64,000 nt of DNA from Candidatus Omnitrophota bacterium (GCA_043821705.1 JBDRCN010000045.1:22400-86399); one strand, 5' to 3'; shown: positions 3,001 through 43,566, numbered from the stretch's first letter. Numbers and translations: made by a program. Notes: a model not told the origin generated them from the letters alone.

Positions 3001-6000
3001 AAGGCCCTTGATCATAGTTGATATCATATCCGTATCTATTATTTTCTTATTTTCAATTAGGCTATTTATAAGAAGATTGCCTGCTGTCTTATAGAAATCA
3101 TCGCTTCTTCTTCTATCGCTAGCTAATTCATTTACTATAGCTTTTATCGCGACTTTGTTGTTCTTCAGATTGTCTCTACCAGTAATTTTATTTCCGGTAA
3201 CTATTGCTACGACGCCTACGGTGAGATTTCTGTTAATATCCTCTAAGATAACAACTGTTTGTACGTTACCACGGTCTTCAATAATGCAATTTTTGCCTTC
3301 TTTTAGAATTATTTCTTCTCCAGTTTTACTATCTTTAAGTTCTATTATCTCAGTTTCAATATCAACTGCTCCGTCATTAAGATTTGCTGTAGCATACCCT
3401 ATCACTCCAGAAACAATATAATTCCCAAGCTCATCATCTATTTGAGGCTGTGTTTCGTCAGGGATTAGGGAGCCAGTGTCTTTTTCTTCATCTAGTTCAT
3501 TAAGTTTTTCTTCTATCTCTATCTTTTTCTTCTTAAAAAATTCTTTAGCCGCATCTGAGGATTCATTATCATCAATAGCTTCATTTATTATCTCAAGAGC
3601 TTTATTGTAATTCTCTTTTGTTTCTTCGCTACCAATCTTATTTAGTTTCTCCAGATATTTAGCTCTATGTTTCAATTGTTCTTTAAATACTTCTATAAAG
3701 ACTTTTCCTTTTTCTTCAATTTTACTAATAGCCTCTCTAGTCTCTTCATTGTATAGATCCTTTAATTCTTCAAATTCTTCATGGCCTTCCTGTATTAATA
3801 GATATTCATAACCTAGATCCTTTTGATATAAGCTAAATCCAAAAGCAACTACTTTATTAGTCTTATCTGTTGCAACATAAAAAACACTCTTCTCTCTAAT
3901 GATGTAGTTTACGCCACCACCCTTTTCATCTATCAAATATACCTCTGGGTCACTTAATGGAGCATAACCATCTTCTTCAGAATAAAAATATGCACTATTA
4001 TCTACTCCAACTTTATCCATATCCCATGAAAAGAGATTATCGCTACAATAACGGAATAATCCAAAAAGCGCAGTATAGCTTTCAATTTTTCTATCACCAT
4101 ATAGCCAATGATGATCACCTTTTTCATCTTTTAATGGACTTGATTCTATCAGAACAGGTCCTTTTTCTAATATTTTATCTAATTTTTTCTTTAGAAGTCT
4201 TTCTTCTGGTAATGTTTTGACTCTTTTTATCATCTCGCCTTTAGGCTGCTGTAATTTTTCAATGTCCTCTTTTGTTATTTCTTTATCCAATAATTTTTCT
4301 ACCAACTCTTTGCTTGTGTAATCTTCAACCGGTTTTCCTTCCATAACAGGAACTATCGTATTGTAATATTTTGGATAGTTGACAGGATCTCTGCCTTGCA
4401 AATATAGAATATCTTTAAACTGTTCCAGAGGCAATTTTTTAATATTCTCAGCGCCATCAAGTCCTATGGAATCATAATAAGTGACCTCATTTGTCTCTTT
4501 GCTAAACGATGTGATATGGACTGAATGAGGTCCATGGTTATCAATTATCAGTATCATGCCGTATTTTTGGATATTCGTGTCCGCAAGCCTCTCCTCAAGG
4601 GTCACCCTTCCCTTTTCCTTGTATGAAAGGGTTTCTTCCATTTCGAACCTTACATCACTGCCGTAAAGCTCTGCCTGCTGGTTCATATAATCCCTCAGCT
4701 TATCAAAGGGAAATAAACTTTGATCGGAAGAATAAGTTATATTTGCTGCATAAATATCAATATCTCCATATGTACTTAGCCCGTTGTTTTTTTCAACATC
4801 CTTTAAAATACCAATCTTATCGAACATTGAGAGTGCAGCAAATATTGTGCAAGGTAAAGACAGGTCAAAAGGACCTTGCGCATTATAATGAATATTTGGA
4901 TATTTTGTATCATTTGACGGTTCCGCCTCAGTGGGTGGATCGTATACTGTCGGCCTTGTTTGTTCATCTCCTTTGGTCTGGTGTTGGACTAGGATATTAT
5001 TGATTGCTTCTCCTAGGCGAACTATCTTCACATCATATTTCCCATCCTCATTAAGCGTAAGTTCTAGCCTGTCTTCTTTCTTAAGAGGTTCTTTTTCTCC
5101 TGGTATATAGACTCTGTCTTTTCCGATTTTATATACTAATTTTCCATTTATAGATTCTTTATCTAGTTTTATTACATCATCTCCTATTATAAGCTCTCTG
5201 GCTTCTTCGTTAGAAGCAAGGCTAAGGACTTTTATACCCTTATCTACAGTGCCACTCATATCAGCCAGGCTTATGCCAGAGATAGTGGCAGTGAGATCGT
5301 TAGAAGGCGCAGTAAATGCTATTTTATATATTGACTCTTTATCCGGGGTGATCTCTATGCCATTTCTTGCTTCAAATACCACTTCACCATCTTCATCTAA
5401 TATGTCTTTTTTGACTGTAATAGTCCTCTTGCCTGTCATCTTATCCCACGTAATCTCAGAATTTGATTCATTGAAGCTAACAGTAATGCCATTCATTCTT
5501 AAATTTATCTCTTTATCTGAGATCATCTTCACTTCTCCCACGCCTCCACCACCAAATGTTACAGGCATATAGCCTTCATCAGGAACAGTTTCAGGTGTAT
5601 AATTATCACCTATAGGCACGCCAGACATAATCTCAGTTCCTAACGACGAAGGAGATTGGATGTTTTGATCTAATTCAGGCCTAGACATTATTGACTCAGT
5701 GTCGCGTTGTTCAGGTTCTTTGCTTTCTGCAATACTGCCTTTTCTAACAACTTCTATACTAAACTTCCCATCACCTTTAGGAGTTAGTTCTAACTGATTT
5801 CCACGATAAACCTTGACTTGTCCTAATATATTTATTCCTTCTTCTGGGATGTTTTTGAAGGTAAGTATTATAGACCCATCAGCTTGCGGCTCGCTTAGAT
5901 CTACCTTATCTCCTATAATAAATGCCTGGGCTTCGCCATTAGAAAGGGTAAAGGTAATCTCTTTTACTCCAAAGAAACTCTCTACATCATCTATATCAGC

Positions 6001-9000
6001 AAGGCTTATACCTGATATAGTAGCTGTAATGCCAGTAGGGTAGGAATGTTGAGGAAATGGGAAGGTTTGGCCTGAGTCGGGTTCTGGGATTATTAGACCA
6101 GTGTCGGAGTTTTTCTTAGGCTGGCCTTCTTTTTTATCTGTACTTACAGGGATAAGCTTCATCTTCTTTATATTAATAGTGCAATCTGGTTCATTTAATA
6201 ATATTTCATTTTCCCCATACCTTTTTCCTGTGTACATTTTTATCTTAGTGACACTTGTCAAATCTAAGTTTGAAGGCATATATATCTTTTTAATGCCATC
6301 TGTAGATACATCTATTTTAAAAGACGAGTCAAATATTTCCTTTCCATCAGACGTTACGAAGCTAATAGCAATTTCTTTAAGCCTGCCTTTGGATTTAAAG
6401 TTAGTGCCTGACGGTGTTTTTCTCACATCCAATTGCAATTCACACCCAGTAAGGTCTAAAGGCTTATCAAAAACAAAATCAACATAATTATACTCGCTAT
6501 ATATTCCGCCTGCTGAATAATATTGGCTTACTCCATCAATAAATATATTCATCCTGCCTACTGCTGATACGATAGATCCTATATTTCTCATTGTTGCTTT
6601 TTCAATAAAGATAAGTGGCGCTACATTTTTAATGGTTGATTCACATCTTAAAAGCCATTTATCCTTTTTATCCTTACATTCGTAACTCGCAATCAACGTA
6701 TATCTAAAATCTTTTCCTCCAGCTTTTGCGCGTGTTTTATTAACTAAATCTAGCACACTCTTTTTCATCATAGGATGCGGCAGCTTCTTAACTTGTTCTC
6801 CAATTTCTTTAAGAGAGCCTGTAAATATTTTCTGCTCAGGAATAATAGAGCATTTACTATAAAATCTCCAGGAATAAAAAGTATCTGGATGTTTTTCTAA
6901 CTCTTTCTTTGCTCGCAATGTCAAATCATACTTAAGATTTTCTCTTGAAAATGCAAAACTAATAGAAACGTATCTAAAAAAGTAGTGTCGCAACAATGGG
7001 CTTTTTATTTTCTTAGCCTGCTCTTTTATCTCGGTAATAGTGCCTATAAATCTCTCTTCAGGAATCTCTAACTCATTTAACCATCCTCTTTGCCTTTTCT
7101 TAAAATCCATACCAATTTCTTCTGGTGCTTCTGCTATTTTATATCCTGCATTTCTTAGCTCAAATTTAACCCAACCTTCAGACATACCATAGCTACCATC
7201 ACGACCACTACTCTCTTGAATATTGTTAGGACAACCTTTATCCAGTGTCATGATGCCAAATTCATATTTAATGCCTTCTTCTGCATTGTAAAATAGGCGT
7301 TTACTAACTTTATAATAATCTAAATATTCTTTAGCATATTGTCGCATTCTTGAATCCTCTAATGCCTCTATTTTTACCCTAAGTTCTGCGAGCGTACCTG
7401 TAAGTTTCAGCGGCTTAGGTGGCAATTCTTTCATCTCTACCTGCCAAGATTCTCCTGGCATCTCCTTTACAAATTTCACGGTTAAAATATACTCTACACC
7501 TTCCTGCAGTTTTGGTAGATTTTTCTCAAATTCTTCTTTAGCTACTTTTTTGATTTCTGCATCTTCTGTATTGCCTATTTCATGTTTAATCTCAGAATAT
7601 GAACCTCGAAACTCTGTTTCTATATCTTTTGAACTGCTTAATAAATCCTTTGCCAGTATTTGTTCAGTAAAAATCTCTATCGGGTCCTCTTCTAGCTCCT
7701 CTTCTAGCTCCATTGATATATCTTTAACTAATTTATCTTTCTGCAGTTGCGTGATTGATTTTATTTCTTCCGGCTCTAAAACCCCTTTTCTTGTTTTGCC
7801 TTTACCTTTGCTGGGAAAAAGGCTTATTTTCTCACCAGAGCTATATTCTCGCCCGTCAAGAGTTATGTCTTTTAAGAAAGTAACGATCCTTTCTCCATCT
7901 TCATCTCTATTGCCTATATCTACATCAATACCATTATAGAGCTTTACCTTTGTCATATCTTCTAGCTCTCTTAAAAGGTAAAAAGGTTTTTTATTTTTTA
8001 AGACTGTATTATATATATATTTAATTGGCTCTGGAGGTAAGTATGAATGCTTTGGTTCTTCTTCAGGTTCTGGGGCAGCGTGTTTTTCTAACTTTCTATC
8101 TTTACTTTCTTCTAAAATCTTCTGGGGTTTTTGTGGTTCTTCTTTTTTCTCAGAATCTCCATCGATAATATTATTCCAATAATTATGGTCCATCCAGATC
8201 TTGCCGTTTTCATCCATTGACCACTTGGCGTAATATTCATATCCATCATCATATAACTCCTCTAACTCTTCTTCTGTATAGAGACGCGTAAATCTATATG
8301 TCTCTAAATCTAACTTACAGCTTGTCATTCTTTCTACCTTTGCAAGCAATACTTTACTCTTTTTGCATTTTTCCAAAATTTCCGAAAATAGAGGATATGA
8401 AAAATTGAATAAAGATTCTGCAATAGCTGCTTGATCTTCTTTAAAACTACCTTGTCCATGCCCTCCTGCACAATCCTCAAGCTCTAGGCTCTCCGGCCAG
8501 CTAGAATCATCATTTGTCCATATATAAGGTATATAATCGTCATTAAAGTCCATAATGTGGAAAAGTTCGTGATGAAAATACTGATAATTGGAAAGAGTCA
8601 TTGTTGTAGGCCAAAAACGTGACTTAATATAATTTGTTACTTCTTGATTACTACTATGCCCTACATATTTAGGATTTATTGCTATCTTCTTAAAATTTGA
8701 ATTTTTTAAGAAAATCTTTGGATATCTAAGAAGCTGCTCTTTTACAGCATGAACCTTTTGGTATAAATATTCTAATCTTATCTCATCTCTTCCAGGTGTA
8801 GTACGATCTGTCTTAAGCCATTCATCTATTGCCTCAAAATCTAATTCATCAGAAATACCCAATAGAGAAACTTCTATCCCGAGATTTTCAATATCAAGTA
8901 CCTGAAGATAAATCTCTTCTTTAAAGTAATTCAATCTAGCCTTTTCTTCCTTGTCGCTACCTCTAATCACTTCTACGCTATACTTCCCATCATCTTTAAG

Positions 9001-12000
9001 GGTTAATTTTAGCTGATTTTCAGGATAGAACGTGCCTAAACCTAATATATTTACCCCATTTTCTCTGAAGGTAACTATTATTGTCCCATCAGCTTGCGGC
9101 TCGCTCACATCTACCTTATCTCCTATAATAAATGCCTGGGCTTCGTTGTTATAGGTAAAGGTAATCTCTTTTACTCCAAAGAAACTCTCTACATCATCTA
9201 TATCAGCAAGGCTTATACCTGATATTTCAGCTTCGACGGATGTTAGATCAGTAGAAGGTAAATCTATTCTATCAGCGTCTTTTTCAGGCATTAGTGAGCC
9301 AGTGTCAGGCTGCTCTTTTTTCACAAACTCTTTAAGCTGCCAGATAAGTTTGATAAGTGTCTTCTGCGTTAGACCTTCATCCGAAGAGGCTGCCTTATCA
9401 ATCTTGTCTTGTATAAATCCAAATGCCTCTAAACCAAATGCCTTTATAAATAACTCTCTATTAGTCCAATCATCGCTTAAAATTTCTAACGGATTTGGAG
9501 AAATAAGCATCAGCATTGAAATATAAGCTGGAATATAAACACCTTTATAAACCTTAGAAATTCTATATGGCGAATATCTAATAAGATCTTTAGTCTCATA
9601 ATATTTTGCATCATCTATCTTGCTCTTTTTGACCCAGACCTTTTTTCCTTTTTTCCCATTGACTACTTTATTGGCCGATATATAGCCCTTAGACCACTTG
9701 GCTTTTACAGCTGTATTTGGTACAAGGCTATATTTTTTACCATCAAAAACAATCGTATAATATCTGCTAAGATCAACTTTAATGGGAGATAATGGTTGAG
9801 TAAAATCTTTGTTAGCTGTACGATATTTTACTTTTTTCTCTTTGGCAAACTTTGTATTATCAATACTTTTCTGTATTCTATATTCCTCAAATCTTCTTTT
9901 GATGTCTTTAGGACTAGGTAGTTTACCTTTCATTAATTTTCTTAATTCTTTTAACTCTTTCCTTTCGCTTCCTTTAATTTCTCTATATTCTAAGAGTTTA
10001 TCTATCTTTTTAAGTGCTTCTTGCTTTATTGGGTATCTTTTTCCTAATAACGTATCAAATATACCGAGATCATTGATTTCTTTTATTAAGCCGTTTATCT
10101 TTGCTTTTAATATAGCAATCTCGGCTTTTGTCTTATATTTTTTCAAGTCTTTTTTCTCATCTGCGCTTATCGTTTTATTATTCAACCTTTCTTCTATTAT
10201 CTTAGATGCCCTCTTATACGCATTAGCTGCCTCTTTATAATCCAGACCTGTAGCGTTTAACTTTGCTTCGTTATAACATTTATTAATTTCTTCAATTACT
10301 ATATTTCTTTCTATAATATCTTTTTCTTTTTTCAATTTTACAGCTTCATCTATAGTTATATTTTTGCTATTTAATCTGCGTTTTATTCTCTCAAGAGTTT
10401 TCCTATACGCATCGACTAAGGTTACGGATGAAGTATCCTTTGAAGTCAAATAAGATTTAATGTCTTCGTAATGAGTTTCTGAACTTAGAGAAGACCTCCA
10501 TTCCATACTAATTCCGTTAAACTCACCATTGTCACCTCTTGCAGATATGATACTAAGATCATATTCAGCATCTATAATATTAAGGTGTTTGTAGAAATGT
10601 TCAAAAAATAAGGCTCGTATAAGTGGGCTTTTTATCTTTTTTGCTTTAGCTTTAATTTCTGAGAAGGTCCCAGTAAGCTCTATTTTGTCTGGAATATTTG
10701 TTTCGTTAATCCATCTCAGCTGTGTATATTTAAATCCTATATCACATGGCTCCGTAGGTTCTAAGATCATCGACGGGCTACCATGACTATTAAGCCATTG
10801 GACTTTGCTCCTTTCCCATTCTTCATTACTATACCAAGGGGTAAAATCAGGGCCTGGAGAATCTATTGCTTTTCCTTTTAGATCTAGATTTAATCCTATC
10901 AATATGCCAATAGTGTATGTTACGCCTGCTTCAAGTAGTGGTCTAATCTCTTTAAGACAGTGATCCAATGTTTCCTCAGCATACTCTTTCACTCTCGGGT
11001 CTTGTATATTCTCTATCTTGACCCTAAGTTCGGAAAGTGTACCTGTTAACTTCAATGTCTGCGGCGGGATTTCTTTCATCTCTACTTGCCATTCTTCCCC
11101 CTTCATAGTTTTAGTTAATTTTATATCTAGAACATACTCTACGCCCTTTTGTAGCTTGGGTAGCTTCTTATTAAATACCTTTTCAGCTTCCTTTCTCATT
11201 CTTGCATCTTTTATATTATTTATTTTATCTTTAATACTGGAATAGGAGCCTTGAAATCTCCTATTTATACTTCTTACCTTATATCTTACACCATCTTCTG
11301 AACGGATAAGTTCTAACTGAGTACCAGTTGGGAAGAATTCTTTGCCTTGAGGGGTATCTATATAGGTCTCTTTTGTAAATTCTACTGCGATGATTTCCTC
11401 TCCATCCGGGTTATCAACTTCTTTTATGCAATTTGGATATGATTTACCATCTACCTCAATTCCTGTAGAGCCATATATAGTTAATCCATCAACTGATGCT
11501 AGATCTGTAAAGAAGGTGATGTTTATAAGAGGAAGGATTTGTTTAGTGTCAATGTGAGGGTGAGTTTCATCAGGCATTATCGACCCACTGTCGGATTCTT
11601 TAGATTCTTCTTCTCTTAGTAATCTCTTATATGCCTTTATAAACATAACTCCTAAGTTCTTATGAGGTGCTATATAATTACCAAAGGCTCCATTGTGGCC
11701 GAGTCTATCTTCCGCCTTTTCCCAGAACGCTGGCCATGATATATCCTTACCTTTAAGTATCTCAGTATTTAATAGATATAAAAGCGGATCATTTACATAC
11801 ATTGTCCCTGTTCCTTTAGTAGATATAATATGGGCTTGGGGAGTTTTATCTAATATATCTGATATCTCATTATAACCACCGCAGGATCTAAGGACAACTA
11901 GCTCTGCTTCTGGGTTTATTCTCTTAATAGTCTTATTAACATGATAACTATGCCCCATATGGACTTCTATATGGACCTTTTTCCCTTTTAAAGCCTTATC

Positions 12001-15000
12001 TATAGCAGCCTGCCCTTTATCTTCGAATTCTGGTTTATTGACATATAGTTCAATCCTTTTACCATTAGTAGGTCTTGATATTATAAGGGTATAGCTATCT
12101 TTATCTTTAATCTGCCAAGCTTTTTTACCTTTATATTGATTAAGGAGACTATTGTAAGAGGCCTTGCCATCTTCATCATTATAAGAATAGAATCTCTGGA
12201 TGCTCACTTCGTCTTCATTAAATAGGTTCTTAGTAGGTAGTTTTGTAATATCCTGCAGTTTATATTTTTTTGACATCTTTTTAAACCAATCAGTGCTAAG
12301 TACTGCCTTTTCGCTGAAGAGGCCTGATAATAAGCCGTAAATAACTCTTGCCTCTTTATTGTCTTTCTTGAGGACTTTATGGTATTCTTCCTTTATGGTT
12401 TCTTGGAGGACTTTTAAGACTTCTTTATCCTGTATCATGCTAAAGGTATCAGCTATAATTACAGCCTGTGATAGTAAATCTTTATCATCGGACTTAATCC
12501 TTACAAATCGTTTAAGTAAGTGTATCTTTTCATCCTTTGTTACTGTATTCAAGAATTCATTCAATCTATTGTAGCTGGCACATAGTTTAATCATCACTCT
12601 AAACTTATTGTAATCTACCTTTTTAAACAAAGTCTTAGCAGTCAATCCTTCTTTTTTCATTTTATTAAGCATTCTTGTAAATAGGCCATTAAAGGTGGAA
12701 GTAAAGACTTCGTTTTCGCCATAGACCATAAGAGTATAGAGTGTTTCGGAATCAAAAGTTTCTACTGATCTAAAACGTATTGTGTCGGATGAGTCATGTA
12801 GATAGTTTATGTCCCATATCGCTCTAAGACAAATCATTTTTAGGCCATTGGTTATAGAAAAACTTCCTAAATAATCTGGCTGTCTTTTAATTTCAATAAT
12901 ATTTTTAAGTAATAGACTAGGGTCTTTGGCTATATTATAGGCCTTTTCAAAAGACAGGTTATTCTTTACTATCTTATCTAAAAGTAATGTCGTCCAAAGT
13001 GCATCTTCCTGAGATTTCAACGGTACATTTTTAACACCCCAATCATATAGCCCGCACAATTTTTTAACTATAGGATTTTTACTGCGTTTCAATACTTCAA
13101 TAAAATCTGAATTTCTGGTTAAGGTTGCAAATATAAAATCGGTCAGCTGTCCTCTATCGTTTCCTCCAAAAATTAACTTCGACCCTCCATCAATAGCTTC
13201 AAAAGGAGCAAAAATAACCTTGGATTCAAGAAATTCTAGTCCATAAGGTTGATCAATAAATATCTTATAGTGTCTAGATAAATTCTCATTAAAAACATAA
13301 ATAAGATCTAGTATTTCAGGAGCCCAAGACTTGCTTATCCATTTTGCTAAAAATGGTTTTACTATGAAGGTATCGCCTACTATTTTCCCTTCTATGAGCA
13401 TAACTTTAAATATTTCCTTTGCCCAAGGTTTATCAATATATTTATCCATATCTTCCATTGCCCTCTTAGGATCATCTCTAGCTAACTCCATATAATAAGA
13501 TTTTTCTTTTTCAGTATCACGCTCGCTTAAAGATATTCCAGCAGAAGAAGGGCTTAATATGCCTTCGGTAGATGGACTGACAATAAAATCAAAATCTTCA
13601 TCTACAGGAATATCCGACCTGCCTGTAATATCTTTTGTCTTTTGAGGCTCTTTTTCCTTGGCACTACCTCTATCTATTTTATATTTCATCTCTTTTGAAA
13701 CATAAACCTGATATTTTAATTCTGAAATCTCATATGGTGATTTAGCTATATCTTGTTTTTTGATAAGATCTGTCGCGCTATCTATACTAGATTTCTTTAT
13801 AAGTACTCTTTCCTTTATTTTTCCATTAACCATTCTTACACCAAGGACATAAAGGCTTTTATCCTCACTCCATCCATCTAATTCATATTCAACATCATCT
13901 TTATGAATAAGGCTGTGTTTTTGGCCATCATATACAATAATATAGTCTTTGCTGAGGTCTGATTTTATTAGTTCAGTTACCTTATATCCTATTCCATCTT
14001 CTTGAAGTACGAGTCCTAATTGGGTGTATTTGGGGAAAAATTCAGCTTCTATGGTGGTGTCTTTTGTAAATTCTACTATTGTAATTCTACCCTCTGCTCC
14101 TATTCTTGTTTTAACCTCTTTTATACAGTTTGGATATGGTTTACCATCTACCTCAATACCTGTATAGCTATCTATAGGAGTAAGCTTATCAATGGATGCA
14201 AGGTCTACGAAGGGGATGATGTTGGAGAAGGGGAAGATTTGCTCAGTTTCAGGTTGAGGCTGAATGATCCCATCAGGCACCAGTGAGCCACTGTCAGGTT
14301 CTTTTTCAGGTTCTGGGGTTTTCTTTTCTTGTATTCTTTTTAAAACTTCCAATAGTTTAGTATTTGTAGGGGCGCCTTCACTGTCCAATCCCGACCTTGT
14401 CCAAAAATCAATCATATCTCCTAAATTCCCTACTCCTAACACATTTCTATCTTTATCTAAAAATGTTATAATGGGAGTCATGGCTTTCTTAGCACCAAAA
14501 ATAAAAGGCACTAAAGCTGTAACTAAATTTGTACTTTCGGAAGTAAACTCCTCTCCATCAGAAGATGTTACCTTTATACCATCTTTCGTAACTTGATAGA
14601 AAAACTCCTGGCCACTTCCTTCTGGTATAATATACCCTTCGGAAATTATTTCAGAATCTTCTTCTATGCTGGGTTTATCTATAACGTTATAATCATCAAT
14701 TCTATGTAAATAACTAACATTAATATTATCGGTTGAAATGAGATTATTTAATAAAGATCCTCCTATTAAACCTCCTAATATCTTACCTAATTTCAAAGAA
14801 ATGCCTGCTTCAATACGATCAAGAGTATGGCCATCTCCGTCCGGCTGCCAAAATTCCCCGATTTTCATAAAATTGAAATTTGCTTCACCGTAATCAGTAT
14901 TTAAAGATATGCCTCCACCCCATTGGTACTGATCCTCGGGATCTATGGAATAATTAAGCCCGCTTGATGTAAATGGTGTACGCCCCCATGCATTAGCTTT

Positions 15001-18000
15001 TAGCAAAATATCTTTACTTAAACTAAAATCTATATTCATAGCACCAACACCAAACCACTTTCTGTAGAAACGACTGACATTACCGCTTAATCCAATGCTA
15101 ATATCATCTGCAATTTCAAAATCTGCATTTAGTCCTATCTTGAATTCAGATAAATATCCTGCAGGATCATCAATTATACTAGGATTTATAAATCCATTTA
15201 ACAATGCATAACCCGATATGAAAAGATTATCAATGTAATCCTGCTTAAAACTTTTATAGATCCCAACAGATGGCTTGGCATACCAACTACTTGTCCCTAG
15301 ACTTGGGTTTATAAAGATATTTGTACTAATGCCGGCTCCATAGCTCATATCCTTAATGCCAAACAAACCTGGATAGGCACGATAAGCATCTAACATCATT
15401 CCTAGATAACTATCGCTTCTCAAAGAACTATATTCGTTAGTTTTTATCAAATCATCCACCCAGCTACGATAATTTAATGGTACATAACCCCATAGACTTA
15501 AACCCATATCAGTAGCATATTCACCTTTTTTGTCCATTGTTGATGCTGAACTTGCCATAAACATATTGCTTTCATGGGTTGATAATTGAAAGGTATTAGA
15601 GGATATCTTAATCGGCGACCAGCTATCGCCCAAAGGATTTACAATGCCCACATCTATCTTTGGATATAGATGTTCATAATCAAAGAAACCTTTAATATTA
15701 ATTTCATTGATAAAAGGCTTTTTCTCTGGTTCTACATCTTTGTTTTCCTCAAATATCTTCTGGGGCTTTTGTGGTTCTTCTTTTTTCTCAGAATCTCCAT
15801 GGATAATATTATTCCAATAATTATGGTCCATCCATATTTTGCCCTCTTCATCCATTGACCACTTGGCGTAATATTCATATCCATCATCATATAACTCCTC
15901 TAACTCCTCCTCTGTATAGAGACGCGTAAATCTATATGTCTCTAAATCTAACTTACAGCTTGTAATTCTCTCTACTTTTGCAAGCAATATAGAGCTTTCC
16001 CGACATCTAGTTAAAAGTTCAAAAAAGCTATGTCTTCCAAAAAACGAGTCTGCAATAGTAGCCTGATCTTCTCTAATATTTATCTGGCCATGATCACAAT
16101 CGTAATCTTTAGAACCTAAACTTTCCGGCCAAGAAGAATCATCGTTAGACCATAAATGAAACGGCAGATAATCATCTTTAGAATCTGCGTGATGAAATAT
16201 TTCATGATGGATGCTTGGGGTGCTGGTAATAAATATTCTTGAAAACCATTTTCCAAGACTAAAATTGTATTTATCTGTTTTCATGTTATAAATATAAGGA
16301 TTAACAACTATTTTTACAGTGATGCAATTTTTTAAAAAAGCCTCCGGATATACTGAAAGGGCCTCTTTTATTTCTAAAAGCTTCCTCTCTAATGTTTCCA
16401 GTTTATACCTTCCACTTATAAGCCATCTATTAGAAGAGCCTCTCAAGAAAGTTACTAGCGCATCAAAAAATCTTGGTATATCAACTTCAAATCCAAATTT
16501 ACTACTGATATCGCGCACATGGGAATTAATCTTTTTCTTAATGATTAATACTATATCAGCATCTTCCTGTAACCTTTTGCTTGCAAACTCTATAGCCATG
16601 CTATTCTTTTCAACAGCTTTTGACACAAATTCCTTATCGCCTCTGAACTCCATATGATAAATAATGCTTGGCGCTTGAACGACTATATCTAGAATAAACT
16701 CTTTATCATTTTTCAATCTATCGCTTGCAAACCGTATTGTAAAAGTATTTTTCACAGCCGCAGCAAAAACTATATTCTTATCATCCTTAAAACTATCGCT
16801 TACATATTCTAAGACTTTGGGGTTTTTTTCTATAGCCTTTAATACAAATTTTTTATTATCTATAAATAGAGAACCTACAATAGCTTTTTGGTCAAACTCT
16901 ATCTTGTCAAGCAATTCTTCCCAAGTTACTTTAAAGGTTACTCCATCTTCTGAAATGAGTTCTAATTGGGTGTATTTGGGGAAAAATTCAGCTTCTATGG
17001 TGGTGTCTTTTGTAAATTCTATTACTGTAATTCTACCCTCTGCTCCTATTCTTGTTTTAACCTCTTTTATGCAGTTTGGATATGGTTTACCATCTACCTC
17101 AATACCTGTAGAGCCATATCTAGTTAATTCATCAACTGATGCTAGATCTGTAAAGAGGGTGATGTTTGTAAGAGGGAGGATTTGTTTAGTGTCAATGTGA
17201 GGCTGAGTTTCATCAGGGATTAGTGAGCCAGCGTCTTTTGGTACTATTGATTTCTCTACAGGTACTAATGTTTTTAAAGGTGTTAGTTTGATGTGTGTTA
17301 TATAAATTTGGCCTATTCCTTTATTTGACAATTTCTGGCTTCCATACTTTTTACCACTATAAAAACGTATTTCCTTAACACTTGTCATATCCAAATCATT
17401 AGGTATATATATCTTTTTCCAGCCATCAGCGGATACATTTATTACAAAGGAAGGATGAAATATTTCTTGCCCATCAGATGTTATAAAGCTTATGCCGATT
17501 TCATTGAGCCTTTTATCAAGCTTGTAATGGAAAGAATCAGGCACTTCTTTTACGTATAATTCTAACTTACATCCAGTAAAATCAGCTGGCAAAGATGGGA
17601 AGCTTGTCGAAATATCACAACATACAAAATTATCATCTTTATACCTAGCAAGATCGCTCATATAATGTCCATACTTGCTGCTTTTGTACATTCCGTACTC
17701 CTCCCCAATGAATACGTTCATATTGCCATTTGTACTTATAGCTATTTCTACATCAAAACCGAATGAACGCGCAAGAACTTTCCTCCCGGGATAAGTTTCT
17801 AAGAAACGAATACTCTTCATTGTTTTCTTAAAAGCCATCTTATATATTATCCCTTTTATTTTTTTACCTTTTTTCTCAAATTCAGGAATTACACTAAGTT
17901 TATACTCTTTTACGTTCTGTTTTTTGCCTTCTTTGCGCTCCTTATCTATTAATTCTAAAGCAGCATCTTTCATGCTGGAATATTTAATTTTTTGAACTTG

Positions 18001-21000
18001 AGCAGAAATTCTATCTAATGTGCCATTGAAGTTTATTAGTTCAGGTAATTGAGGAACAATATCGTAGGTTAAACTCCATATTGGTACAACTGTATGTTCA
18101 AACTTTATCTTCCTTATCTTGACAGTAAGAGTATGTATAATATTATCATCATCCGAAGCTACAAAGATGGATCTGTCTTTAATAAGATCTAGCGTCATCT
18201 TTCTTAATAGTGGGCTTTTTATTGAGCGTGCATTTCTTCTTATTCTAGATATCGTACCTGAACGTGTAGCTGTTGCTGACTCGGCTTCATCTATCCAGGC
18301 ATATAATCTCTTTTTATAATCAAATACTATTTCCTGAGGCGTAGAAGCTATTTTATCACCAAAAGTTTGCATGGCACAGTTTACACCAACTTCGCCTTCA
18401 TCCAACAAGAAAGGCACTGTATAACTTATATCCTCATCTGTTACTACAATTCCAAAAGAATATTTTACTCCTTCTTCAAGGCCTATTTTATCTCCCATAC
18501 TAAGCGCATTATTTACAAAATAGTCCAATTTTGCTTTAGCATATTGTTTCATCCTAGGGTCTTCTATATTGTCAATTTGTGTTTTAAGCTCGGAAAGAGT
18601 TCCTGTAAAGCTTATCCTATCAGGCGGCAGTTCTTTCATCTCTACTTGCCAGTATTCCCCTTTCATCTCCTTTACAAATTTCACGCTTAAAATATACTCT
18701 ACGCCCTTTTGTAGTTTAGATAAATTCTTTTCAAACTTCTCTTTGGCAAGTTTCTTTATCTCTGGATCTTTTATGTTAACTATTTCACTATCTATCATAT
18801 GAGACGAGCCCTGAAAGCTCATACCTATACTCTTTACTCTATATCCTGCTCCATCTTCTGAAAGGATAAGTTCTAACTGGGTGCCTGCTTGGAAGACTTC
18901 TCTGCCTTTTGAGGTGTCTATAGTGGTGTCTTTTGTAAATTCTATTACCTTAATCTCTTCTCCATTTGGACCTGCTCTTGTTTCGATTTCTTTTATACAG
19001 TTTGGATATGGTTTACCATCTACCTCAATACCTGTAGAGCCATATATAGTTAATTCATCAACTGATGCTAGATCTGTAAAGAGTCTGATGTTTGTAAGAG
19101 GAAAGAACTGTTCAATGTCAATAATAGGGTGGGTTGGTTCATCTCGAGGCATTATCGACCCACTGTCGGATTCTTTAGGTTCTGGTGTGGTTGTTCCTTT
19201 TTTCTTTTTACTACTAATAATATCTTGATAAATATAGATTGGAACATATACTCCTTCATATAATTCAGAAATCTTAAAGTATGTATCTTCTAGATCTTTC
19301 TTTCTTAGGTACTTAACTGCCGTATCTATACTTGTTTTTTTCACCCATATCGTTCTTTTCTTCTTTCCATTAACGACCTCTCTAACTTTGACATATTTTT
19401 TGCGGTCTATATTTTTGATATTCTTACGCCATATAATATCCTTATTTGCAACAAGACTGTATTTTTTTCCATCAAAAACAATTGTAAAATTCTTGCTAAG
19501 GTCAACTTTATTAATGGGTTCTACTTTGCTCTTAAAAGAATACTCATCTTTCTCTTTCTTAATTTGAACATCTATAGTCAACACCCATCTTAAATCATGT
19601 TTCATCCAATATCTATCGATGGTAGATTCTGCTTCTTTTCGTAATCTTGGATTTTTTAGTTTTTTAACCTTGGCTTCAATCTCTGAAAGTGTACCAGTAA
19701 TTTTTATTGACTCTGGGTATTTCTCGTTAATTTCACCCTTAATACCCTCTCTTGTTGTCCCTACATATAAGGTATACTCTATATCATCTTTAATAAATTT
19801 TGATTCCTTTAATAGTTCTCGGGCAAACTCTTTCAATGCAGTATTTTTTATATTTGCTATTGAAGTTTTTAGTTCTAGGACTGTGCCCATAATTACTATA
19901 GACTCTGCATCTTTTTCTTCAATCATTGATGCCTTGGTATAATCAGTGCCTATCTTCTGCGATTCTGTCTCCTTTATCTTCAATGTAAAATTATAAACCT
20001 TGTCTGATTTAAGGCCTCTGGCATTAATTAATATCTCATGCAAATATTTCTTTACTCTAGGATCTCCTAATTCCTCTATGTCTTTTTTAAATTCCCGAGG
20101 ATACCCTTGATATATAGAGAAATGAGTAAATCTTAAAGGAGGAAATTCTTTTATTTTCCCCTCATATATAGACTCTTTTTCGGTTTCTCTAACATCTATG
20201 GTCAAAATATAAGATACATTTCTCCTCAGTCCTGGAGTATCATTTAATATACGCTCAGCACGTCTTTTCAAATCAGTATCTTTAACATTACGAATTTTAG
20301 TCTTAATCTCTGAAACATCACCTTCGATTCTGAGGAATCCAGGAGATAGCTTTCTAATATCAATCGATGTTGTATATTCACTTCCTATATTTTGGGGTGT
20401 ACTTTCTTCTACATCAAAATAAAGTATATATTTTATATTTTCTTTTTTTGTCAAATCCTTTGCTCTATCTAAAGCTCCCGCTAGATATTCTTTCAAGTCC
20501 TCATCACTTAGTCTGTCAATCTTTCTCCTGATCTCTGAAAAAGTACCGCTAACTTCCATATTTGTTAAATCAATAGATAAATACGCAGTCTTACCTTTAT
20601 AGAGAGAATCTGTTGAAGTTAAGTCTCTAATTATAATTTTATCTTTGTTAGATCCTTTCGAGATCTCCTTAAACTGGACTGTTGGCCTACCGTTAGAATA
20701 AGTTATGCTCAAAACATAGTTCTCTCTTTCACTCCCCGGTGTGTTGTTTTTTAAATACCTTTTAATTCTCGGGTCTTCTATTTTTTCTATCTTATATTTA
20801 AGTTCAGAAAGCGTACCAGTAAGTTTAAGTGGCTTAGGCGGCAGTTCTTTCATCTCTACTTGCCAGTATTCCCCTGGCATCTCCTTTACAAATTTCACGG
20901 TTAAGATATACTCTACACCTTCCTGTAGTTTCGGGAGATTCCTTTCAAATTCCTCTTGAGCAAGTTTTCTAGTTTCAGGATTTTTTGTATTGTTTATTTC

Positions 21001-24000
21001 ATGTTCAATCTTAGAATATGAACCTCGAAACTCTGCTTCTATAGGCTTTGAACGATTTGATAAATCCTTCGTTAGCGTTTGTCCAGTAGAAATTACTGGT
21101 ATATCTTGTATCTTTTTTGGTTTTAGTTTAGCAGTTAATATATCTTTAACTAATTCATCTTCCTGCGGTTGTATGATTGATTCTATTTCCTCTAGCTCTA
21201 AAGTCCCTTCTATTGCCTTGCCTTTACCTTTACTGGGAAAAAGACTTATTTTCTCACCAGAGCTGTATTCTCGTCCGTCAAGGGTTATGTCTTTTAAGAA
21301 AGCAACGATCCTTTCTCCATCTTCATCTCTATTGCCTATATCTACATCAATACCATTATAGAGCTTTACCCTTGTCGTATCTTCTAGCTCTCTTAAAAGG
21401 TAAAAAGGTTTTTTATTTTTTAAGACTGTATTATATACATATTTAATTGGCTCTGGAGGCAGGTATGAACGTCTTGGTTTCTTTAACTTTTTCACAGTAG
21501 AAACAGTTCTTGTCTCCTCCATATCTAACGCCCTTTTTACTTCATAACTTTTCCCATCTTTTTTAAGAGTTAGTATTAACTGATCTCCAGAATAAAACTG
21601 CTCCTGTCCTAATATATTTATCCCTTCTTCTGGGATGTTTTTGAAGGTAACTATTATTGTCCCATCAGCTTGCGGCTCGCTTAGATCTACCTTATCTCCT
21701 ATAATAAATACCTGTGCTTCGTTGTTATACGTAAAGGTAATCTCTTTTACTCCAAAGAAACTCTCTACATCATCTATAGCAGTAATTTCAACTGTGAAGC
21801 CAGGAATAAGAGGTTTTATTTCATCAGGCATCAGTGAACCAGAGTCGGATTCTTCTTCAATAATATCTGTTGGCACAAAAATAATCTTATCCTTCTCATA
21901 TTTAACCTTTACATATTGATTTCTCTCTTTTACAAATCCTATCTCGTTTTCTTCTGGCCACAGAGTCTTTTTATTTATCTTAGCTCCTTCCTTAAATGAC
22001 ACTGCCCAATCTTCATCGATATCCACCTCGGGTTGATTCCATACGTATAGCTTAAATTCCTCACCTTTTCTTACTATACCAGAAGTATTGAGCTTGTTTT
22101 TCTCTTTCTCAATCAATCCTGCTAGAATTATAGCCTTTTTAGCCATAGACTCCATTCCGCTTCTAGGGCCTTCTCCGTAATATGCAAAATTAAAGGCTTT
22201 CTTATAATAAATAGCAGAGTTCTTTAAACATGTAAGAGGATCTAAATCTTCTGGTAGATTTAATATCTTTCCAGCAGAAAAGACGTAACCCATGCTCTCT
22301 GGATCAAGCGGCTGTTTTACAGTCCTATCTCCTAAATAGAGATATATATCTCCTAATTCACTAGATGCTGTTATAAATCCTGGATCCTTCTCTAATGCCT
22401 TTTTGAATAAATCTATTGTTTCTAAAATATAATCGGGTTCCAGATTCTCTCCGTAAATTATATTATGTTTATAAAGTTCTGCCAGATTGGCATAGCCCCA
22501 GACAGAGCCTGGATCTTTTTCAATGGCCTTTTTTAAAAAATCTATTTTCTCTGATTCTTTTTTTAAGCCTACTGATGTGCTTCTTGCATATAAAATATAG
22601 GAAGATAACAGAGCTTCAGGTGTACCTATTCTAATCTTTCTATGTAGTTTCTTTTTAAAATGACTCTCTTTTAACTGCAGATATTGCCCAGGTTCAATTT
22701 TTTTGTATAGCCCGCCAGAACCTTCTAACGGAAAAGGCTCGCTTATGCCTACTCTAGGATTTGATATATCAACTATTATAGATTTGTTATCAGAAAGTTT
22801 GACTAAACTAGCTACATGATATACACCTTCTTGTACTCCACAGGACCATGTAACCTCAATAGGATCTATAGATAAGCCTGCCAATCTACCTAAGATTACA
22901 AAAAGCTGTGTAGAACCTACGCAATTAGCTGAACCAATATAGCCTTTGTCAGCATGTTCTTCATTGAAGACCTTGGTAAGAAGAGCTGGGTAATCACCTC
23001 TATCACTCTTAACTGCATTTTTTATAATTTTCGATAAACTATTAATCCTTTCTAATCTTGGCATATCTTTTATTTTTTCTAACTCATAATTATTATAAAA
23101 ACTAGAAATTTGCTCTACTATTTCCGATTGTTCTTCCAAAGAATATCCTAATTCTTCAATAGCCCCAGAAATTACTTTTTCTATATTAGTTTCAGGTTGA
23201 TTTTCTTCTCCATAACCACCTAAATCCCCCTTGGACCCTTCATTAAGGTCTAATTTCAATCCTTCACCCTTAAGCGCTGCTCTATTGTCTACATCTACAA
23301 TTAGAGATTTAATATATTCACTATCCTCTATAGATAAAAGAAAAATAGGTAATTTAATCCCCTCTTCTTCCAGGTGTTTCTTTATTGCTTCCTTCTGACG
23401 AGAAGGTAACGCTACTATAGCTACTTCATTAGGAGCAAGACGGCTAACAAATTCTTCCTCAAGAAACTCTTCTAGCTCGCCATTCTTCAGTGAATAAAAG
23501 CCTCCTTGAATAAAATGTCTACCATCGAATAAAACCGGAACTTGAATAGGAGCTTTCTGTGAATCTGTTTTGCGAGATTCCTGTTGACTAACTTTTATTA
23601 TATTCCCATCTTTATCAAATGTTACGTCAAAACTTATGTTTGCTAAAAGCATGGCAGTCCCAAATAAAGCCCCTCCTCCACCGCCAAAGGTAAATGTAAA
23701 GGTGTCTTCGCTGAGTCTAGCGGCATCATCTTCAGGTGCATCAATGCTGCTTGTATCCTTAGATTTAGGAGCAGATATTTCTTCAGTAGAAGTCTTGGTT
23801 TTTGGAGCTTGTTTGGAAGGTTCTGGTTCAACATCTATTACAAGCATACCAGTATCATTGTCTTTCTCGATACTAATATCTATCTTTTCTTTTCGAGCTA
23901 CTGAGTTAAATCTCTTTTTAAAATATTTTAATTTATCCTCATCCTTATTAAAATTATGTACGAGTAATATCCTTCCTTTAGGTTTTACTATTCGAAGAAT

Positions 24001-27000
24001 ATCTTTGATGCAGTCATCTATTTCTCTATCTCCTTTCAAGTGTTCAAAAAACCCACTTATGCTCATCTTGGTAATACTGTTGGGCTCTATCTGCTTCATG
24101 CTATCGCCATCATTTTCAATAATATTTACATTATCAGGAATAGCTCCAAGAGTAAGCCCCCAGGCATAAAGCTCTTTTAATAGTTCCGGCACATAGAGTG
24201 GGCTTGCATTTAAAAGAAAATTTTCGTAAGTTGTGTACATAACATCATTAAATTTTCTAAGATTGTTAAAAGCAGAAAAAAGCGCTGTTGTAAATTGAAT
24301 ATTGGTTTCTGATATATCAATATAAAATACCTCTTTTGCATTATAGCTAAAGTAGGCCGCTACTGCATCAGGGCTCATTCCCATCCCAGCGTCACAATAT
24401 GCATCCTCCTTGCTTACATCAAGAAGGTCCATAACATCTGATGCGCAATAATCACGGCTCCATTTAATAAAATTATATCCATTGTCAATACTAGATCTGT
24501 CAAAAGCTTCTACCATAAGATTATCAAACCAGCTAAATTGTCTCATCACGTCTTTTTTAATACGCCCAATATTATCTTCGGTAATTTTTTCATCTCCGAT
24601 TAGATCTGTTACATATGACCACATTTTTTCGGATAATATAGAAGGGCCTGGAGAATTTTTAACTATACGGAGCCGCATAGACATATCCATATCTCTATCT
24701 GACATATCATCTTTAGGAAGTTTATAAGATGCTTTTAGAAAATCATATAGTGAAGCTTCTGGATATAATGATAGGTAGATTAATATAGATGTTAGATATG
24801 CTTCTCTTTCATCAAGACTTGCCATATATCCTAACATTGTATCCGGGATATTCGCTTTATCTCCTCTATTAGACTGCTCAATGTGTGCTAATTCATGGAC
24901 TATTGATGTCATCCTCAAAGAGCTGCCAATAGATACAATAAACGGGACTTTAAAATTTCCTTTAATACCAAGCGCTTCTTTAAATTTATTAAAAGACTGT
25001 TCATTCTCCTTTTCTATAATAAAACCACCTGCAGCATAGCCATGTTCAAGTATCAACCAATCTTTCAGATCAGGATCTTTAAGTGCCTTGTTTTTTTCAT
25101 CATCAGAAATTACTAAAACTTGTGCATTTAAAGATTCGTCGCTTATGTCTAAATTAATAAGAACTTGCTTAGGGATATTTTGTTCATCAATATAATCTCT
25201 CGCAATAAAATCATCTCTTCTAGATTCATCTTCGGAAATAGGTACGGCCTTCTTTAATGCGTCAATAAACTCTCCATCAAATATTTTTAAAAGATCATCA
25301 ATGCTATAAGAATTTTTCACTTTGACCTTACCTTCTAGGTCTTTTCGTATACTCTCATCTTCTTGTTTTAAAAGATCAGATATAGTAAAGATTTTACTTT
25401 CTAAACCTTTAATATGTTTATTTCTCCCAATAATAAATCTCTTAACTCCTTCATCAGCTGCTATAATTAAACTTGCGTTTTCTAAATCACCGCGTACGAT
25501 CGGATAGGCAGATTTTTTATTTTTTAGATCTTCTTTTAAATCATCATCAATTTCAATATATTGAATTATAGATTCTAGCTTGTCTAAGCTAATATCTTCC
25601 CCTTGAGATAATGAGCCAATATCTTCTACTGGCAGATATCCGCGCGAACTTACATTAACACCAGAGATATTATTTTTTGACGCAAGAATAGATAATACTA
25701 TATCCATTTCAGGTCCTCTTAATTGACCGTCACCGCAGATAGTAAGAATATTATATGTATTCGATGAAGGATTTTGTTCAGGTAAATCATTAATGGTATT
25801 CTGTAGTTCTGACTTATCTCCAATTATAGGTATTGTTATCTTAAACGTACTTCCTTTGTCTTTTTCAGACTCTATCCATATCTGGCCATTATGTTCATCT
25901 GTTACATATAGCCTACTTTCAGCTAAGCCAAGGCCTGTCCCACCTTTTCTCTTCGACCAGTTAAGCCCAAACGCCCTTTGGTAAGTCTGGCCTTCTTCCT
26001 GCTCTAGCCCATCTTCAGGGAAGCCTGCTCCATCATTATAGATTTCTAAGACAATACTCTTCTTGTCTTCCGATAGCTTAGTAGTGATAGTAACATTTTT
26101 GATCCCCAGGTCTTCACTTAACTGTTTGTTATTTGTTAAAATATTACTTAAAACACACAATATCATTTTCTGGTTTACCTCTGTCATGGGGATAGAAGAT
26201 AAATTAAGAGTAAGAGTCACGCCTTTTGTTTCAAAATCTTTAAGCATCTTATTGGCTAGATCGTTTACCAATGCATTTAGATCCGTAGGTTCTTTTTTAA
26301 GAGTTCCTCCTAGCCAATCCAATCTTTCATTAAGGACATTTATATTTTCTTGTACAGGAGCTTTGATATCTTTTCGTAATAGGTCAAGGGCTGCTATAAC
26401 ATAGTCAGAACTCTCTTGGGAAACCAGATAATTTTCTAATTCTTCAACTTTATTATAGATAATCTTTGTTTTTTCAAATATATCATTTAAACTATTCTGC
26501 CAAGTATTTTCTACGCCTATCTCTAATTCTTTACTAGCATCTATAGGCGCTGATTTAGCCAGATCGTTATAACTAGAAACTATATCAGTAATGTCTTTAT
26601 TTATCTCATCAAGAGCTGTTATTATCTGATCAGGGTCTTTCCCGTATGTAAATTCGCTAATAGAATTTAAGGCAGGATTAAAATTATTCTTAATGTCGTA
26701 GATCGTTCCATTATGCTCCATGCTTCTTAAGGCAATATATGTCTTCAGGAATTCTTCATTGTCCAACATGGAAGATATTGGCGCAAGAAGACCTACCTTT
26801 TCCTTTATTAAAGATAGGTCATTATTGCTTTTTCTTATTATATTCAGGTAAGTAGCAGCAATGTGCATTCCTGCAGGACAGGCTTCTAAGATCCCAGAGA
26901 CTTCATTAATATCATAATCTTCACCTGACAATAGGATATCTTTAATCAACTTTAGAGATTCTTCGAAGTCTCCGTCTAGAGCAAGGTTCATAGCTTGTTC

Positions 27001-30849: not shown

Positions 30850-31425
30850 TTATTTAGATAGGGTTATTGTTTTTTGGGATTGGTACTTTCCTTTGCGGTC
30901 AGAGTAGGTAGTGTCACACTCTTCCTGGGACTCAAAGAATATGATCTGGGCTATGCCTTCATTAGCATATATCTTCACCTGGGAGGCTCCTGTATTGGAG
31001 ATATCCATCGTTAAGTACCCCTCCCAGCCTGGTTCTAGGGGAGTGACATTGACTATGACACCACACCTGGCATAAGTGCTCTTACCAGTACAGAGCGCTA
31101 GTACGTTCTTAGGCATCTTAAAGTACTCTAATGACCTGGCTAATACAAATGAATTCGGGGGAATAATGCAATATTCCCCCGAATGATCTTCAAATAGATC
31201 CTTATTTATATTCTTAGGATCAAGTATGTCTTCTTTCTTGCCTCTAAACAATTTAAACTCATTTGAGAGTCTTATGTCATATCCGAAGCTAGAAGGTCCA
31301 TAAGATATCTTACCATCTCTTACTTGCTTCATCTGGAATGGCTTTATAATATCTTCTTCCAAAGCCATTTTTTTTATCCAGGTATCTGGTTTTATTGACA
31401 TAGTTTTAACACTTTGAATATCCAC
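30850..31425 (-). CDS. dcd: dCTP deaminase
   Basis: [14 protein letters not shown]...[36 protein letters not shown]. The true start is probably the internal Met MSIKPDTW at about 31401, giving an ATGA overlap with nrdJ. Confidence 0.8.
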
Positions 31426-39100: not shown

Positions 39101-39136
39101 CTTGTGTCATGTGTCCTGTGACTTGCAACTTGAATA

Positions 39137-41013: not shown

Positions 41014-41031
41014 GGTTCACGAATCACGATT
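40955..41031. repeat. Tandem heptanucleotide repeat array arranged as an imperfect palindrome (CGTAATY x4 ... RATCACG x4), batA-batB spacer
   Basis: cgtaatc cgtaatt cgtaatc cgtaatt cgtgatg cgcaatc ggttcac gcatcac ggttcac gaatcac. Confidence 0.8.
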
Positions 41032-42560: not shown

Positions 42561-42609
42561 ATTTAGATACTTACTTCTAATACCTTCTTAGTGCTTTTTA
42601 ACCCACTCT

Positions 42610-43542: not shown

Positions 43543-43566
43543 GAATTACGAATTACGCATTACGAA
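43493..43566. repeat. Tandem heptanucleotide repeat array in two opposed blocks (ACCGTGA x5 / TACGAAT x5), DUF58-moxR spacer
   Basis: accgtga accgtga tgcgtga accgtga ttcgcga tctgt tacgaat cacgaat tacgaat tacgcat tacgaat. Confidence 0.8.

Follow-up and report, generated by a model that had tools for sequence, protein, structure and literature searches.

A recurrent junction peptide in a giant Omnitrophota protein: a joint between shuffled modules and a candidate processing site

Are the giant proteins of Omnitrophota single working chains, or are they cut into pieces? The question is open, and it is raised in concrete form by a 64,000-nucleotide stretch of DNA from an uncultured Candidatus Omnitrophota bacterium (GCA_043821705.1, JBDRCN010000045.1:22400-86399), referred to here at its full length as the window. 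To our knowledge, the longest known proteins are encoded by Omnitrophota. In this window, one minus-strand frame runs without a stop codon from position 30606 to position 1, a length of 10,202 codons, and continues past the window start. The ATG at 30555 is the likely start of the gene, leaving more than 10,185 codons from there, and the C-terminus of the protein is outside the window. No other stop-free stretch in the 64 kb is of comparable size. Along the middle and distal part of this giant protein a short peptide, the linker, recurs at eight joints between modules and thereby gives exact positions at which the question can be tested. The open reading frame (ORF) and the linker copies are as follows.

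Window 1-30555, minus strand: the giant ORF, recognized from the stop-free stretch, from matches in Pfam, NCBIfam and PHROG, and from N-terminal homologues in Omnitrophota.
Window 21820-21855, minus strand, residues 2918-2929: linker copy 1, EESDSGSLMPDE, followed by an A-type domain.
Window 19141-19176, minus strand, residues 3811-3822: linker copy 2, KESDSGSIMPRD, followed by a B-type domain and located within a 49-residue low-confidence coil (19072-19218).
Window 17209-17244, minus strand, residues 4455-4466: linker copy 3, VPKDAGSLIPDE, followed by a B-type domain and preceded by a module that also precedes copy 7.
Window 14269-14304, minus strand, residues 5435-5446: linker copy 4, KEPDSGSLVPDG, followed by a B-type domain.
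Window 11566-11601, minus strand, residues 6336-6347: linker copy 5, KESDSGSIMPDE, followed by a B-type and then a C domain.
Window 9280-9315, minus strand, residues 7098-7109: linker copy 6, EQPDTGSLMPEK, followed by an A-type domain and preceded by a module that also precedes copy 2.
Window 6079-6114, minus strand, residues 8165-8176: linker copy 7, KNSDTGLIIPEP, followed by an A-type domain.
Window 5677-5712, minus strand, residues 8299-8310: degenerate copy, EQRDTESIMSRP, found by a loose regular expression only.
Window 3454-3489, minus strand, residues 9040-9051: linker copy 8, EEKDTGSLIPDE, followed by unrelated sequence.

The eight robust copies share the consensus [EK]-x-[SPK]-D-[STA]-G-[SL]-[LI]-[MIV]-P-[DE], in which the Asp, the Gly and the Pro alone are invariant. 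To call the linker strictly conserved, as was done in the original prediction from the DNA, was therefore too strong. At least nine copies had been claimed, and the Asp codons of those listed are at 21846, 19167, 17235, 14295, 11592, 9306, 6105, 5703 and 3480. All nine are in frame with the ORF, each within about 15 nucleotides of the place assigned to it, but only eight are robust. The copy at 5703 (residue 8302, RDTESIMSRPE) is a decayed version of the linker, and is missed by a hidden Markov model (HMM) of the core, which recovers exactly the eight others (residues 2921, 3814, 4458, 5438, 6339, 7101, 8168 and 9043). The proposed spacing of 2-3 kb is mostly right, with intervals of 1.9-3.2 kb, except that 6105 and 5703 are separated by only 0.4 kb. 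Copies are confined to residues 2,921-9,051, with none in the first 2,920 residues or beyond 9,051.

Several forms of the motif were used to assess its recurrence. The strict form, D[ST]GS[LI][MVI]P, occurs six times in the protein and not once in 2,000 protein shuffles, and the looser regular expression occurs nine times against a mean of 0.02 in shuffled proteins. When all six frames of the whole window were scanned with the form D[STA]G[SL][LIVM][LIVM]P, eight matches were found, all in the frame of the giant ORF. A degenerate DNA form of the motif was observed three times, compared to zero in 100 shuffles. Tandem DNA repeats were considered as the source of the internal pattern, and only a trivial 21-bp repeat was found.

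By self-comparison, the giant protein is a mosaic of repeated blocks. The linkers at 21846, 9306 and 6105 are followed by a domain of type A and those at 19167, 17235, 14295 and 11592 by a domain of type B, both about 100 residues long, while other sequence follows the linkers at 5703 and 3480. The proposal that a recurring, beta-rich domain follows every linker thus applies to seven of the nine copies, and the B domain is indeed beta-rich in an AlphaFold model.

Pairwise local alignments centred on the motif revealed how the blocks are combined. The sites at residues 4458 and 8168 have about 250 upstream residues and the linker in common and then part ways, the former into a B domain and the latter into an A domain. 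A different upstream block is shared, together with the linker, by the sites at 3814 and 7101, which likewise continue into B and A, respectively. Conversely, the four B-type sites share the downstream domain, while their upstream sequences are unrelated. Without the linker, the profiles of the A and B domains align with an hhalign probability of 5%, so that homology between them is not demonstrable, and yet the linkers are about 70% identical between the two contexts. Since upstream blocks pair with different downstream domains and vice versa, the motif appears as a fixed joint at which modules have recombined. With its copies at the edges of independently shuffled homology blocks and the modelled copy in low-confidence coil between folded domains, it does divide the protein into modules, as had been proposed, and it is very probably a real junction peptide between shuffled modules. 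It is well supported that a peptide of about 10-12 residues with the core D-[STA]-G-[SL]-[LI]-[MIV]-P-[DE] marks the module joints in the middle and distal part of the protein. It is equally well supported that the modules, of 130-1,070 residues, arose by intragenic duplication and reshuffling, with the peptide retained at each joint.

Duplication is also seen inside a module. The first linker-bounded module carries diverged tandem copies (25-37% identity) of a C-type α/β domain (window about 19500-21070, minus strand, residues 3178-3700), which are invisible as a DNA tandem repeat.

One junction, residues 3685-4060, was modelled with AlphaFold using an alignment of internal paralogues. In the model, the linker lies midway in a stretch of 49 residues (model residues 113-161) with a predicted local distance difference test (pLDDT) score below 50 and no secondary structure. 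This coil separates a folded α/β domain from the beta-rich B domain, which in turn is followed by the α/β C domain. Spacers rich in Lys, Glu and Pro precede several of the linker copies. A Foldseek comparison of the linker-region model with the PDB gave no match better than E = 0.05.

What might such a peptide do? The role ranked first, plausible though tentative, is that each linker is a candidate site for site-specific processing, comparable to the sites in a MARTX toxin or a polyprotein. A site-specific endopeptidase would recognize and cut each copy, releasing the giant translation product as module-sized pieces, as happens to a MARTX toxin or a viral polyprotein. The enzyme might be one of the protein's own hydrolase-like domains, namely the N-terminal TIKI/TraB-like domain, either of two zincin-like D domains or either of two HExxH-methyltransferase modules, or it might be encoded elsewhere. 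This reading is placed first because an extended, position-specific consensus lies in accessible inter-module coil, because the chain contains several hydrolase-like domains, and because toxins of the MARTX and clostridial glucosylating type are cut at short sites in unstructured segments between effectors. A further reason, taken up below, is that a cut after the aliphatic residue would produce ends like the C-terminal tails of related proteins. The features relevant to the candidate enzymes, and the other recognizable parts of the protein, are as follows.

Window 30451-30555, minus strand: N-terminal signal-peptide-like or anchor segment, from a hydropathy scan and from homologues with ends of the A-x-A type (for example ...NISYAAPS).
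Window 28687-30264, minus strand: conserved N-domain of about 560 residues, with a TIKI/TraB/EreA/ChaN-like hydrolase fold and a large helical insert.
Window 27079-28407, minus strand: HExxH plus S-adenosylmethionine (SAM) methyltransferase module, copy 1, from self-BLAST (residues 734-1176 against 1808-2250), HELTH at residue 825 and a match to Methyltransf_11.
Window 25807-26301, minus strand: histidine-kinase catalytic core (HATPase_c), from library domain matches.
Window 23857-25185, minus strand: HExxH plus methyltransferase module, copy 2, a paralogue of copy 1, from self-BLAST and HExxH.
Window 16462-16878, minus strand: three DUF4116 repeats, from domain library matches.
Window 15721-16404, minus strand: D domain copy 1, a zincin-like putative metallopeptidase with HHEIFH, from self-comparison, HExxH and profile searches.
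Window 8083-8793, minus strand: D domain copy 2, with HHELFH, the sole part of residues 6330-7529 with homologues elsewhere.

The N-terminal segment is the only hydrophobic segment that the hydropathy scan detected in the 10,202 residues. Positive charge is higher in the flank that follows it (SNRSLFKNKRPNYEAIQKER) than in the flank that precedes it, and the chain may be either exported or tethered on the cytoplasmic side. The N-domain was identified by fold search alone, since its profile found nothing among PDB sequences. Its model (pLDDT 80) has a parallel beta-sheet core fold as in ChaN, EreA/B, HopBA1 and RRSP. Three residues, H130 (QDLH), E158 (SEG) and H529 (GGFH), are invariant in 31 N-domain sequences and are candidates for the His/Glu catalytic residues of the superfamily (2His/2Glu, GxxH motifs), although the first motif is not GxxH.

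Four HExxH motifs are found in the chain, at residues 825, 1904, 4801 and 7346. The two HExxH-methyltransferase copies are about 30-40% identical to each other and combine the motif HEL[TA]H[VI]EQSNRG with a class I SAM methyltransferase. The HExxH part had no database match, and the module gave nothing significant against PDB sequences. The D domain is probably a zincin-like metallohydrolase, judging from the invariant H-E-x-x-H of its family, a weak PDB match to a zinc metallohydrolase (E = 4e-4) and a match to Peptidase_Mx1 that is below threshold. It carries HHE[IL]FH, EDQATIAE and a Cys/Trp-rich C-terminal part (...YYAKWS...MD..YWN), and belongs to a family of 60 representative proteins (E <= 0.001). 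Pfam also places TPR repeats at residues 2690-2760. Residues 5001-10000 have no match in Pfam, NCBIfam or PHROGs.

For the N-terminal 700 residues, 63 homologues were found, and those that are named come from Omnitrophota, except for one weak match annotated as Endomicrobium; at 28% identity or more, all named homologues are Candidatus Omnitrophica/Omnitrophota. Most N-domain homologues are stand-alone proteins of about 570 residues, and others carry 500-2,400 further residues of different cargo. Relatives were followed in five loci from different Omnitrophota (L002, L006, L007, L008 and L009), in all of which they form an array of one to four genes immediately downstream of proS. In L007 and L009, where the contig extends that far, the array ends at rimP-nusA. 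Every array gene has the same signal-peptide-like start, and some have the N-domain. The cargo varies from gene to gene and includes PGK, phosphoglucomutase, transaldolase, FBPase, PGI, PPDK, nucleotide kinases and methyltransferases. These cargo proteins are ATP-dependent enzymes of a cytoplasmic type.

These relatives also share a C-terminal tail. Nine of the ten complete relatives of at least 1,000 residues end in [ST][GS][ILV]-COOH (with the ends ASGI, ASGV, DSGV, GSGI, GSSV, NTGL, RTGL and DSSL), compared to none of the 55 other ORFs of the same loci and the window. This is a C-terminal tail motif that has not been described previously. The tails resemble the window linkers in having small residues followed by an aliphatic one, often after Asp or Asn (DSGV, DSSL and NTGL, compared to DSGSL, DTGSL and DTGL), but they are true C-termini, whereas the linkers are internal. 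A cut just after the [LI] position of the linker would produce the ends ...DSGSL or ...DTGL and thereby generate tails similar to those of the smaller, single-gene relatives. The constant TIKI/TraB-like N-domain, the variable cargo and the common tail together suggest a route by which giant genes and multigene arrays could be connected.

A stronger version of the processing reading is that the giant ORF encodes a true bacterial polyprotein, in which a dedicated endopeptidase (the TIKI/TraB-like N-domain or a zincin-like domain in the chain) cuts after the aliphatic residue of D-[ST]-G-S-[LI], and the released modules end in a tail like that of the family, which would be a shared sorting or assembly signal. 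This version is unlikely, but if true, it would define a cleavage code for a giant protein of Omnitrophota for the first time and would connect the giant genes by mechanism with the relatives' multigene arrays.

A number of observations weigh against processing. In seven of the eight copies, linker and tail are shifted by one residue relative to each other (D-S-G-S-L compared to D-S-G-V). The junction model rests on a shallow alignment and has a mean pLDDT of 65, and the upstream spacer is just 6-8 residues in some copies. No relative was found that encodes the modules as separate genes starting or ending at the motif. Three linker copies have Ile in place of Leu, and the residue that follows is bulky and is itself followed by Pro, unlike the sites cut by the cysteine protease domain (CPD) of toxins. 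A Pfam search of residues 18-10,202 (E <= 0.01) detected no Peptidase_C80 or other cysteine-protease domain in the part of the protein within the window. No homologue of the linker or of domains A, B and C was found in the collections searched, and hence long-term conservation is not measurable. Finally, the similarity between linkers could be young. By Nei-Gojobori counts over seven core codons, the proportion of synonymous differences (pS) between contexts is about 0.38, close to the 0.33 found within type B, and the corresponding nonsynonymous proportions (pN) are about 0.18 and 0.17, which puts pN/pS at about 0.5. Recent common ancestry, or exchange through the joints, thus probably explains part of the linker similarity, and this weakens the argument from conservation alone.

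The same features of the junction can be read without any cut. The linker may be a docking or recognition peptide that stays intact, a short linear motif in flexible segments between modules that is bound by a partner domain. The partner might lie in the protein itself, in its TPR region, or be another protein that binds peptides, PDZ-like or otherwise, or belong to the envelope or to a host cell. Bound in this way, the chain could fold back on itself, be anchored, or gather a factor at each of its modules. A position in low-confidence coil between folded domains is typical of binding motifs, as is a conserved run of about 10 residues with a hydrophobic pair flanked by Gly and Pro. The TPR repeats are a possible partner within the chain, and the conserved tail of the relatives, which has a similar composition, could serve as a binding tag. 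In the model, however, the linker is not docked on the neighbouring domains, although docking could be missed with so shallow an alignment, and the limits set by a pS of about 0.38 apply here just as they do to processing. Docking is a doubtful reading, if a serious one.

Codon usage bears on a third possibility, that the linker is a by-product of recent intragenic duplication or recombination. It would then mark no more than the border of each duplicated unit, or the short stretch of homology used in the exchange, and its copies would be young or homogenised. The B-type modules appear to be recent duplicates, with identical codons in 31 of the 50 columns that have an invariant residue, and the pS of the core between contexts (about 0.38) is similar to that within type B (0.33). 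The invariant Asp is encoded by GAC in all nine copies, while only 17% of the ORF's 730 Asp codons are GAC. Whichever residue follows (Ser, Thr or Ala), its codon has T in the third position in nine of nine copies, and the Pro is CCT in seven of eight, while neighbouring codons vary synonymously. This bias may reflect shared recent ancestry at the DNA level or a nucleotide-level constraint. Such an origin would also fit a motif that is private to one protein and whose copies lie exactly at the shuffling breakpoints.

Other observations count against this reading. Synonymous differences are found inside the motif (TCT/AGT, GGT/GGG/GGC, TCA/TCG/TCC and CTG/CTA), which indicates that identity is maintained at the peptide level. 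Similarity falls to random at once on the non-homologous side of the joint, while the core of 10-12 residues is kept in at least three contexts (A, B and the copy at residue 9043). Moreover, 36 nucleotides with several synonymous differences would be a poor substrate for homologous recombination. A related sequence is also found in a relative: P0054 (L002 10001-13687), a complete protein of 1,228 residues with an N-domain 37% identical to that of the giant protein and an end reading ...RTGL, has DDGSLVPEY at residue 713, about 130 residues past its N-domain. From typical residue frequencies, the number of matches to D.GS[LI][MVI]P[DE] arising by chance in that protein set can be estimated at about 0.001. 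On balance, a mere by-product of duplication is improbable to about the same degree as docking, and each of the two is nearly as likely as processing. Even if the linker were only a young duplication scar, it would document the growth of a gene by reshuffling of modules at fixed joints.

The strict motif is private to one protein across the collections that were searched. The linker with its B and C domains (residues 3795-4060) had no homologues in 5.8 billion proteins, and a stretch of 1,200 residues with two linkers (residues 6330-7529), compared with 1.84 billion representatives, had relatives for the D domain only. A 44-residue linker profile returned no matches. Two isolated matches were rejected. 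Patterns from the B domain, run against 185,579 GTDB species genomes, gave one match (KEPYPNCIKE, in a metagenome-assembled genome from Bacilli) that was judged to be due to chance. A degenerate linker DNA pattern gave one match in JGI metagenomes, which was also judged to be chance; its ORF overlaps other ORFs, and the translations of the contig look GC-rich.

Among the relatives, P0008 contains an internal repeat whose ends carry RPDESD[TA]G. A second motif of the junction type, LASNxG[LI], is present in P0008 (residues 824-960), P0019 (residue 591), P0057 (residues 472 and 778) and the product of L007 13702-19548 (residue 72). It is preceded by ESD[TA]G in P0008 and reads LASNEGLIPRK in L007. 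LASNxG[LI] may correspond to the linker in a lineage-specific manner. The window protein lacks it, also in the first 2,900 residues, where a further type of linker was looked for.

Two further ways of reading the core motif carry much less weight than processing. The Ser or Thr of D-[ST]-G-S could be modified once per module, for instance by O-glycosylation or phosphorylation. The residue after the invariant Asp is Ser, Thr or Ala and that after the Gly is Ser in seven of eight copies, the site appears exposed in the model, and the protein contains a kinase-type ATPase domain. However, Ala replaces the Ser or Thr after the Asp in one copy and Leu replaces the Ser after the Gly in one, the hydrophobic pair and the Pro are left unexplained, and the window contains no evidence of a glycosyltransferase or Ser/Thr kinase. 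A modification site is very unlikely. Even less probable is autoproteolysis that depends on a fold, either as in SEA domains, between the Gly and Ser of GSVVV, or by an N-S acyl shift of the intein/Hint type at Gly-Ser. The GSVVV cleavage site of SEA domains has a superficial resemblance to the Gly-Ser and two aliphatic residues of the linker. Self-cleavage of either type is disfavoured: upstream sequences are non-homologous between copies, the downstream domains are of at least three kinds, the linker is modelled as coil outside any fold, and Pfam finds no SEA or Hint match in the giant ORF.

The surroundings of the gene are those of an ordinary chromosome. The genes upstream of its start encode a dCTP deaminase, an intein-containing ribonucleotide reductase, a BatA-D/MoxR operon, an AddA-like helicase, an NAD synthase and others. 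The large subunit of the ribonucleotide reductase (window 31406-36223, minus strand; 1,605 residues) is interrupted by the intein, with matches to Intein_splicing, Hint_2 and, twice, LAGLIDADG_3, as well as a TSCPD domain. A complete aerotolerance-type operon in the order BatD-TPR-BatB/BatA (VWA)-DUF58-MoxR (window 37232-44604, minus strand) is found upstream of the giant gene's neighbourhood. The GC content is about 34%, and the GC skew is uniformly negative along the giant gene.

MARTX and large clostridial toxins offer the closest parallel to the processing reading. Their CPD sites are located in unstructured segments between effectors and include GGSL/SED, EGSL/GED and LESL/SAV, where the slash marks the cut (PMC2900308). 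Modules of these toxins are separated by unstructured segments with a short site; in the window protein, the linker lies in low-confidence coil at the one modelled junction, and G-S-L is common to the linker and the TcdA/TcdB sites. MARTX modules include RRSP, a site-specific endopeptidase of the TIKI superfamily (PMC6254334), and the N-domain of the window protein has a TIKI-superfamily fold. However, CPD sites have a Leu followed by a small residue, whereas Ile takes the place of the Leu in three linker copies and the aliphatic residue is followed by [MIV]-Pro. With no C80 domain in the window part of the protein, a CPD site is disfavoured. Nor did Pfam find RTX/HemolysinCabind repeats in that part, and the window contains no type I secretion system genes.

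Viral and phage polyproteins are also made as one long ORF with a repeated short consensus at the boundaries and peptidase-like domains in cis. Unlike them, the window gene is cellular and chromosomal, with dCTP deaminase, ribonucleotide reductase and BatA-D as neighbours and no capsid or replicase content, and its HExxH domains are candidates only. Polymorphic toxins have demarcation motifs, such as VENN in CdiA and PxxxxDPxGL in Rhs. Like the linker, these are short conserved peptides at the joint of interchangeable modules, and the relatives of the window protein likewise pair a constant N-terminal module with variable cargo. A polymorphic-toxin motif, however, occurs once, before the C-terminal toxin, while the linker occurs eight times in one protein. 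No toxin/immunity pair was seen, and the cargo of the relatives consists of enzymes of central metabolism.

The nearest known systems are the giant "multi-enzyme" proteins of Omnitrophota themselves (West-Roberts et al. 2023, 10.1101/2023.11.21.568195; Nielsen & Lui 2026, 10.64898/2026.06.07.730766), in which the most common domains are PF08241 and PF02518. With at least 10,000 codons in an Omnitrophota genome, a signal or transmembrane segment and unrelated enzyme domains (Methyltransf_11 and HATPase_c, in addition to TPR and DUF4116), the window protein has the hallmarks of this class. Like other members, it exceeds 10,000 residues, begins with a signal or anchor, contains both PF08241 and PF02518, and has internal repeats with diverged DNA sequences and large stretches dark to Pfam. 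It differs in having a single hydrophobic segment in 10,202 residues, compared to a catalogue mean of about 22 transmembrane helices in Omnitrophota giants. The cleavage points of these proteins are unknown (West-Roberts et al. 2023, 10.1101/2023.11.21.568195), and a conserved peptide between modules is described in neither study. Giant Omnitrophota proteins and their repeat-rich, multi-enzyme make-up were thus already known; what the window protein adds is the conserved junction peptide.

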